Below, piece after piece: positions 29,622-29,907 of a stretch of DNA of 64,000 bases. The notes under the pieces are model-generated. The model worked only from the letters and a program-made list of their open reading frames with translations, was not told where the DNA came from and ran no database searches. Each line of letters begins with the position of its first letter. Position 1 is the stretch's first letter. A program made the translations under genes and the position numbers. The stretch spans positions 5,885 to 69,884 of the IMG/VR virus record IMGVR_UViG_3300020411_004054. One strand, 5' to 3'. The DNA comes from a virus. Taxonomy: Duplodnaviria; Caudoviricetes.

Positions 29622-29650
29622 TTGTACACCCGACCTACGTGGCATACACT
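29622..29650 (+). promoter_or_regulatory. Promoter for the tRNA-Arg precursor
   Basis: TTGTAC-N17-TACACT. Confidence 0.65.
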
Positions 29651-29656
29651 TAGTAT

Positions 29657-29837
29657 GAGCCGCCGGTGGCTCGGGCAGATAAAGGTAAAGCGATGAGAAT
29701 CAATTAAGTGATTTTAGGTGAAAGACTGATGCGCTCGTCGGAGTGCTGAAGTGCCAGCTGCAGCTGGTATGATTATATGATAAGTTAAGGTGAAAGGATC
29801 AGCCGACGATGTCCTAGTAACCGTGCCCGAGCCCCGG
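29657..29837 (+). ncRNA. Candidate structured RNA or leader overlapping the 5' end of tRNA-Arg
   Basis: GGCTCGGGCA/TGCCCGAGCC helix, internal stems and a 14-nt palindrome. Confidence 0.55.
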
Positions 29838-29907
29838 TAGCTCAGTTGGATAGAGCAACGGCCTTCTAAGCCGTGGGTCACAGGTTCGAATCCTGTCCGG
29901 GGTGCCA
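29831..29907 (+). tRNA. tRNA-Arg(TCT)
   Basis: GCCCCGG/CCGGGGT acceptor, ACGGC-CTTCTAA-GCCGT, TTCGAAT, CCA. Confidence 0.95.

Follow-up and report, generated by a model that had tools for sequence, protein, structure and literature searches.

We examined a 64,000-nucleotide (nt) stretch of a viral record (IMG/VR IMGVR_UViG_3300020411_004054, positions 5,885 to 69,884), called the window here, which seems to derive from the large genome of an uncultured phage; our subject is the plus-strand segment at 29657-29830, directly before a tRNA-Arg(UCU) gene. ARAGORN finds four tRNAs and one transfer-messenger RNA (tmRNA) in the window. The tRNA-Arg(UCU) gene (29831-29907, plus strand) encodes its CCA end and scores 72 bits with the Rfam tRNA model (RF00005); it had been named correctly in the original prediction for this locus, which was made from the sequence alone. 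Folded by itself, this tRNA forms a cloverleaf of -30.1 kcal/mol. Upstream of the segment are the gene for a MoxR/NorQ-like AAA_5 ATPase (28271-29353) and a 76-codon open reading frame (ORF; 29384-29614); the downstream order is tRNA-Arg(UCU), a 63-codon ORF with two transmembrane segments, tRNA-Glu and tRNA-Lys. We tentatively read 29657-29830 as the leader RNA of a phage tRNA operon, made up of a promoter, a ~174-nt structured RNA, tRNA-Arg(UCU) and further tRNAs. The ORFs within the leader are chance ORFs only, and no leader peptide was found among them.

Just before the leader lie a -35-like hexamer, TTGTAC(A) (29622-29627), and a -10-like hexamer, TACACT (29645-29650), both on the plus strand and 17 nt apart, as the original prediction had read them. 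The arrangement TTGNACA, a gap of 16-17 nt, and TAYAYT is kept in all 11 members of the phage clade described below, and TTGNACA is present too in stand-alone copies of the RNA family. Support for a promoter comes from the conservation of both hexamers at fixed spacing while the spacer itself varies, not from a match to consensus. The first arm of the helix described next begins 6-7 nt past the -10 hexamer in 11 of 11 members, and the helix therefore starts at the presumed 5′ end of the RNA; in the window, transcription would start at 29657.

That helix, which we call P1, joins the beginning of the leader to the beginning of the tRNA. In the minimum free energy (MFE) fold its 5′ strand, arm b (29657-29677), pairs with segment c (29824-29843), which comprises leader positions -7 to -1 and tRNA positions +1 to +13; the leader half of segment c (29824-29830) takes up most of the 8-nt spacer (29823-29830) that separates the last leader module from the tRNA. 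The original prediction had noticed that CCGGTGGCTCGGGCA (29663-29677) is complementary to TGCCCGAGCCCCGG (29824-29837) with one bulged T, covering the 5′ acceptor strand of the tRNA. This complementarity was confirmed, and P1 extends past it, with GAGC (29657-29660) pairing to GCUC (29840-29843) in the D arm. The full helix pairs GAGC.CGCCGG.UGGCUCGGGCA (29657-29677) with UGCCCGAGCCCCGG-UA-GCUC (29824-29843) and covers seven leader bases, the entire 5′ acceptor strand and the 5′ strand of the D stem.

The pairing is predicted to be strong. The MFE structure of 29657-29910 includes P1 and has an energy of -94.6 kcal/mol (z-score -3.5; none of 200 shuffles as good), and in the ensemble tRNA nucleotide 1 pairs with 29670 with probability 1.0. 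Arm and tRNA are predicted to form a duplex of -45.2 kcal/mol, whereas shuffled targets give -28.6 ± 3.4; nothing comparable was seen for the other three window tRNAs. P1 uses the same strands as the acceptor and D stems of the tRNA and excludes both of them. Imposing the acceptor stem on the window fold raises its energy by 11.9 kcal/mol, and among the 11 clade members the locked state is ahead of a forced cloverleaf by 5-15.6 kcal/mol in ten, with one (L082) borderline.

With the ATPase as anchor, 62 viral loci were fetched, and pattern scans of viral, metagenome and genome collections added many copies. The closest locus (L001; ATPase 91% identical in amino acid sequence) has a homologous leader and tRNA-Arg. 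In a more distant one (L002; 69%) the tRNA-Arg acceptor strand is GCUCCCG and the spacer is unrelated, and the RNA following the promoter is complementary to the region from spacer position -5 through tRNA position +18. When the 300 nt upstream were tested for duplexes with tRNA positions -10 to +22, P1 was found in the window, L001, L002, L084, L090, L103, L105, L112, L116 and L175, and weakly in L082; in these 11 marine-phage contigs, here called the lock clade, the duplexes of arm and tRNA range from -35 to -45 kcal/mol, with z-scores of -4 to -8.7. P1 is 21-29 base pairs (bp) long in the clade, taking in the last 4-12 leader bases and the tRNA from position 1 to positions 13-19.

P1 is kept by compensatory change. 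The acceptor 5′ strands vary (GCCCCGG, GCUCCCG, GCCCUCG, GCGCCCG, GCGCUCG) and the arm matches each time; the spacers are unrelated sequences of 7-26 nt, with leader positions -4 to -1 paired in 10-11 of the 11 members and CG, UA, GC, AU and UG pairs all occurring there. At acceptor positions 3, 5 and 6 there are double changes together with the arm. In a MAFFT alignment (A4) with a hand-set structure, the paired share of P1 cells is 86.9%, falling to 35-49% with the partner slid out of register; ten P1 pairs carry changes on both sides, and the covariation score of 0.385 (0.194 for shuffled alignments) was reached in none of 500 shuffles. Departures from perfect b:c complementarity comprise 21 G.U and 5 A.C, an excess that argues for selection on the plus-strand RNA, with a possible contribution from strand-specific mutation bias. 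Covariation in related phages, which the original prediction had looked to as a check, is thus seen as compensatory change in 10 contigs besides the window.

The original prediction saw in this helix a conformational switch, with the arm released into a local hairpin, GAGCC/GGCTC. The premise of this idea held up well: the helix is a covarying plus-strand RNA structure, predicted to dominate the cloverleaf and exclusive with it. The releasing hairpin did not hold up; it is strong in 6 of the 11 members, among which L112 and L002 have a weaker form than the window, L001, L084 and L116, and in the others it is weak or, as in L090, L103 and L175, missing, and is no conserved switch element. The conserved alternative partner of arm b is rather a segment that the original prediction had not noticed, box a (29629-29643, plus strand), which lies in the promoter spacer. 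Besides its complementarity to arm b, box a approximately repeats segment c in the direct orientation, with ~80% identity to the junction of spacer and tRNA. In the window the a:b duplex has -21.8 kcal/mol, against -13.7 ± 2.8 when shuffled; among clade members the mean is -18.7 kcal/mol for an arm with its own box a and -12.5 for an arm with the box of another member, and shuffles are beaten in 10 of 11 members.

Together with segment d (29897-29903, plus strand), the acceptor 3′ strand that competes with arm b for segment c in the cloverleaf fold, these make four consecutive segments, a, b, c and d, with three possible helices, a:b, b:c and c:d. The last of these is the acceptor stem, which co-varies among the relatives. 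The chain resembles a trp-type attenuator, in which four consecutive segments include middle ones with two partners each and 1:2 decides 3:4; the mutually exclusive helices 1:2, 2:3 and 3:4 of the attenuator correspond to a:b, b:c and c:d here. It differs in that 3:4 is a tRNA acceptor stem instead of a terminator, that there is no leader peptide, that segment 1 lies in a promoter spacer and would occur only in read-through RNA, and that the output would be folding or processing. A transcript would include box a only if made by read-through out of the ATPase gene. That gene stops, in most members, a few bases short of the -35 hexamer and leaves no space for a terminator.

The same repeats could have been made and kept at the DNA level, by inverted and direct duplication of the tRNA 5′ end with gene conversion, or as a cruciform or operator at the promoter, in which case the RNA helix would have no role. 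Box a does directly repeat segment c, and arm b is an inverted copy of both; a and b flank the -10 hexamer and the start as operator half-sites do, and the mismatches of a:b are without clear G.U bias. We nevertheless consider this explanation very improbable. The G.U excess in b:c is strand-specific and RNA-like (allowing for some plus-strand mutational bias), and the leader part of P1 is wholly different from phage to phage yet still paired. The repeat tracks each phage's own tRNA, unlike a protein operator, and in all members the arm lies exactly at the transcript 5′ end.

Between the two strands of P1, the leader holds several further structures, all on the plus strand. Hairpin AGAAUCA/UGAUUUU (29696-29715) appears in both the MFE and the centroid fold, in a variable region whose sequence is not conserved in relatives. 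Hairpin H1 (GCGCUC-GUCG-GAGUGC, 29731-29746) is in the MFE fold and contains box L1, UCGUCGG (29735-29741). The palindromic hairpin CCAGCUGCAGCUGG (29754-29767), also in the MFE fold, lies where the relatives differ in length, and is followed by an A/U-rich linker (29768-29788; columns ~196-223 of alignment A4) that has a semi-conserved UAUGAU and is unpaired in the MFE fold. Near the leader end is the 34-nt H2 module (29789-29822), consisting of GGUGAA, the stem AGGAU/GUCCU with a loop bearing box L2, CCGACGA (29803-29809), and AGUAACC. The interior stems and the palindrome that the original prediction listed are all present. So are the two copies of GGTGAAAG (29717 and 29788) that it reported; the first is specific to the window. 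The idea that the two copies reflect a tandem duplication of the module was dropped, the first copy being absent from L001 and other relatives.

The H2 module occurs once in the window, where 0.04 exact matches to the pattern are expected by chance, and is still single with one mismatch allowed. The frame GGUGAA-hairpin-AGUAACC was found in ~36 distinct contigs with an insert that differs and is always foldable; the H2 stem is different in every member, and its pairs (helix 3 of the hand-set structure) co-vary. The motif itself is invariant in 36 aligned copies, partly a circular result since most copies were found with that very pattern. The GGU:ACC pairs are present in 11 of 11 clade members. 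The ATPase-anchored loci, found without use of the motif, have exact copies and single-change variants (GAU, GGUA, ACU), on the plus strand only. Three such variants, GGUGAU (L005:2361-2398), GGUAACC (L007:3150-3188) and AGUAACU (L054:3371-3406), show positions that tolerate change. RNAalifold, run on a MAFFT alignment of the module that is not structure-aware, returned GGU:ACC only; H2 and the loop pairing described next were tested instead by script and with the hand-set structure.

Box L2 is complementary to a box L1 25-110 nt upstream, often in the loop of H1. The two boxes change together among members: GUUCCUU/AAGGAAC, GCGCAUG/CAUGCGC, GGGUGGUG/CACCAUUC, GUGCAGA/UCUGCAC and, in the window, UCGUCGG/CCGACGA; L001, L002 and L112 share the window's GUCG(G) loop. 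The fit of L2 to a member's own upstream region beats that to other members' upstream regions (permutation p < 1e-4), and the L1:L2 pairing of the window (-12.6 kcal/mol) ranks 1 of 33 in this comparison. Mimicry of a tRNA anticodon stem by L1/L2 was considered and failed in the GCUGC subgroup.

In classical loop E, 5′-AGUA-3′ lies opposite 5′-GAA-3′, with Watson-Crick pairs following the last A. The module has AGUA opposite GAA and flanked by ACC:GGU, and in our reading would form a motif of the loop-E/bulged-G (sarcin-ricin) type, a likeness that is known here from sequence alone. The setting differs from those of rRNA, 5S RNA and the T-box specifier loop, in that the module hairpin would kiss an upstream loop before a tRNA.

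Such a core could in principle sense a ligand, protein or RNA, with the kissing hairpins and loop-E module as sensor tuning P1, making the leader a natural 'RNase P riboswitch'. Synthetic RNase P riboswitches were reportedly described by Ender et al. in 2021 and have been tested further since (PMC8925977). In these designs, which use a theophylline aptamer, ~7 leader nucleotides before the tRNA are masked while the tRNA stays folded, and RNase P cleavage becomes conformation-dependent (PMC8925977). The phage leader likewise is a structured RNA directly before a tRNA, with the region for RNase P masked and maturation predicted to depend on conformation; leader positions -7 to -1 are paired in the MFE folds of 11 contigs. 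It differs in that P1 is natural, also takes the whole 5′ acceptor and D-stem strands, and has box a as its apparent alternative partner. A sensor would account for the conserved tertiary-structured core with its near-invariant 13-nt motif and co-varying loop-loop pairing, and a P1 that masks the RNase P site and directly encloses this core has the layout of aptamer and expression platform; the designed theophylline versions function in E. coli (PMC8925977). Against a sensor, nothing indicates a ligand or partner, the interior from P1 to the module varies strongly in length and sequence, and most family members are without the platform, having no tRNA pairing; moreover, a gap of 5-15.6 kcal/mol is large for a ligand to bridge. 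We regard the sensor as improbable.

The leader belongs to a phage RNA family that is absent from Rfam and apparently undescribed. A scan of 26000-33000 with Rfam 15 at an E-value limit of 10 returned tRNAs only, leaving 29657-29830 unmatched, and at nine other member loci it returned tRNAs and sub-threshold matches to sX4 and Plastid-ycf2 that are tRNA artefacts; the motif did not turn up in literature searches. A marine metagenome contig (MDSZ01155753.1; L079) carries an identical leader locus. BLAST of the leader, its 8-kb neighbourhood and a Lys-linked family member against 50,697 phage records matched tRNA parts or nothing, and no cultured relative of the window phage was found among these records; the window ATPase is at most 32% identical to cultured-phage proteins. 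In cellular genome contigs the pattern scan gave 25 matches, apparently due to chance (in coding regions, without hairpin or without tRNA), and the family was not seen in cellular genomes with that pattern. A candidate from the Arg-specific pattern (L074) was likewise discarded as a chance AGTAACC.

Family members are 100-210 nt long and occur in several contexts. Many are directly before tRNAs, most commonly Arg(UCU) and Lys(UUU) and also Thr(UGU), Arg(CCU), Gly(UCC) and His, and the spacers between module and tRNA peak at 5 and 8 nt across the family. Others form a ~100-nt spacer between tRNA-Ser and tRNA-Lys with no promoter and no tRNA pairing, and three (L003, L004, L057) stand alone between their own promoter and terminator. 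A closing helix was looked for in stand-alone copies by duplex and MFE folding, which did no better than shuffles. A sister Arg-linked clade shares the synteny of ATPase, promoter, RNA and tRNA-Arg, but its RNA has a 5′ local hairpin GUUAAAC...GUUUUAAC and nothing that pairs with the tRNA. Its ATPases are 58-67% identical to that of the window, against 68-91% in the lock clade, which suggests that the lock arose in one lineage. Of 30 loci found by pattern only, 18 have the ATPase gene immediately before the module, down to 38-39% identity (L151, L155), a neighbourhood that could reflect a functional link or mere lineage synteny.

L151 has two module copies (2637-2679 and 6174-6216), the second 5 nt before a tRNA-Arg(CCU). 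In L077 (1027-1222) the module is followed by a 17-nt spacer and a tRNA-like gene (ACCCGGG...CCCGGGU acceptor) with a ~110-nt insert after the 5′ strand of the anticodon stem, which may be an intron-bearing tRNA; ARAGORN did not call this gene.

These contexts bear on another explanation, in which P1 is the closing or processing helix of an independent stable noncoding RNA (ncRNA), and both ncRNA and tRNA-Arg come from each transcript. P1 would join the ends of the ncRNA and shield its triphosphate 5′ end, and may include an RNase III-type or RNase P-linked cut site that gives the ncRNA its 3′ end next to the tRNA, much as in rRNA processing stems and phage T5 RNAIII, which abuts tRNA-His; that P1 overlaps the tRNA would be a by-product of tight packing, undone by helicases, nucleases and the tertiary folding of the tRNA. 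The original prediction had offered a separate ~180-nt ncRNA as its second reading, and this gains support from family members that stand alone with their own promoter and terminator, lie between tRNAs without a lock, or belong to the sister clade without pairing. The fixed 5- or 8-nt distance between module and tRNA fits an ncRNA 3′ end made by RNase P, and the 21-29 bp of P1 are within the substrate size range of E. coli RNase III.

Phage tRNA clusters such as those of T4 and T5 have been known for decades to contain small stable RNAs without assigned function. In T5, stable RNAs are annotated directly before tRNA-His (RNAIII/RNAI) and tRNA-Arg (RNAX), and in T4 after tRNA-Arg (rnaC/rnaD); like the leader they are promoter-driven small RNAs abutting a phage tRNA, and their placement fits the idea of an independent ncRNA. 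In T5 (NC_005859, L202; 30206-30389) the RNAIII region pairs from leader position -10 to position +5 of tRNA-His, with -23.1 kcal/mol against -15.4 ± 2.6 for the null. This helix, formed with an RNA that has no sequence similarity to the leader, takes ~5 tRNA nucleotides as against 13-19 in the lock clade; it indicates that the architecture of a closing helix running into a tRNA recurs in unrelated phages, and for an ncRNA closing helix it offers a parallel. T5 tRNA-Arg has no lock-type pairing, and a relaxed match to the GGUGAA/AGUAACC module found none in the tRNA regions of T4 or T5. GOLLD and ROOL are large structured phage RNAs with function unassigned, often near tRNA genes (PMC12286853). 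They share with the leader family a phage origin and the vicinity of tRNAs, and differ in being 500-800 nt long, in being represented in Rfam and in not being known to pair with tRNA.

Several features of P1 are nevertheless hard to reconcile with an independent ncRNA. The pairing reaches 13-19 nt into the tRNA and is kept by compensatory change, far beyond what closing or cutting needs; cutting within P1 would destroy the tRNA, and the helix is continuous over the -1/+1 border and as drawn is not an RNase P substrate. Nor does this explanation account for box a, and a clear P1 was not demonstrable in the stand-alone copies. We take the ncRNA to be possible, with the odds against it.

The reading that we prefer, with a probability of roughly 0.45, is a model in which transcripts started at the leader promoter lock tRNA-Arg and read-through transcripts free it. 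A transcript beginning at 29657 would have arm b at its very 5′ end. As b would be made first and c would emerge before d, and as P1 is 5-15.6 kcal/mol more stable than the cloverleaf, the locked fold is expected from the leader promoter. In the locked form the RNase P site would be buried in a continuous helix and stay uncleaved, a block made plausible by the success of masking in designed leaders (PMC8925977), and tRNA-Arg, still attached to the leader RNA, would be kept inactive as a 'pro-tRNA'. Release would come about by removal or capture of arm b, with box a as the conserved candidate for capture: by occupying b ahead of the synthesis of c, it could let c go into the cloverleaf. The choice of transcript start would then decide between mature tRNA-Arg and a locked leader-tRNA RNA. 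That the locus is a natural 'pro-tRNA' lock, set either by promoter choice via an anti-lock box a or by an effector acting on the loop-E/kissing-loop core, strikes us as somewhat unlikely.

A number of observations weigh against the lock model. The leader promoter, for all the conservation of its hexamers in the 11 members, is weak by sigma-70 consensus, falling below the threshold of a simple sigma-70 scan, which did not call it. At the end of the 76-codon ORF (29595-29614), immediately before the leader promoter, is a weak terminator-like hairpin followed by T6 that would lower read-through in the window phage; most relatives are without a terminator-like element at that site. In read-through RNA containing box a, the locked state is still better by ~9 kcal/mol in the window. 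Since box a does not reverse the equilibrium, any effect of it would be kinetic only, holding b while c and d are made. The mismatches of a:b (10 G.U, 4 A.C and 19 other) show a weak G.U bias. All of these energies come from nearest-neighbour models, which take no account of the tertiary structure of the tRNA, of modified bases or of proteins. The lock clade comprises one phage lineage, with ATPases 68-91% identical. Because the family also occurs without the lock, as stand-alone copies, between tRNA-Ser and tRNA-Lys and in the sister clade, the lock would be an add-on, not the core function of the RNA. Finally, sacrificing the first tRNA of an operon seems wasteful.

Three known types of element were considered for the leader and rejected. 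A self-cleaving ribozyme is disfavored by the lack of an Rfam match and by a helix that is continuous across the tRNA border. The T-box riboswitch model (RF00230) is unmatched, what lies downstream is a tRNA gene and not an mRNA, and no terminator follows (no T-run terminator was found after tRNA-Arg). Terminal pairing as in a retron msr-msd is present, but the seven neighboring ORFs tested (27048-36096) have no reverse transcriptase domain; the 3′ arm here is a functional tRNA.

The leader provides a well-defined, co-varying RNA family from uncultured marine phages with a recognizable motif of three-dimensional type. For one clade the family also has a physical connection to a tRNA that is direct and can be tested, since P1 has to be undone before tRNA-Arg(UCU) exists. 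If the lock operates, a virus can control its tRNA supply through RNA folding and 5′ processing; we know of such control so far only with engineered riboswitches. If the 'pro-tRNA' reading is true, the leader would, as the first such RNA in nature, parallel the designed RNase P riboswitch and give a virus a new means of timing when a rare-codon tRNA becomes available; it would also offer for study a compact natural switch of three or four RNA segments. The family may also hint at what the older T5 and T4 RNAs do. Should P1 be no more than a processing stem, the RNA is still a new candidate family for Rfam with a function approachable by experiment.

Further observations concern the rest of the window. 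Between tRNA-Arg and the next ORF is a 167-nt non-coding stretch (29908-30074) with complementarity of the type CCUGU...ACAGGG inside it. That ORF, the 63-codon one with two transmembrane segments (30075-30266), barely reaches PF20712 (CyanoTRADDas_TM), at 24.8 bits against a cut-off of 24.3. The phage-encoded tmRNA lies at 53723-54082 and, according to ARAGORN, encodes the tag ANDNVEYDYALAA.

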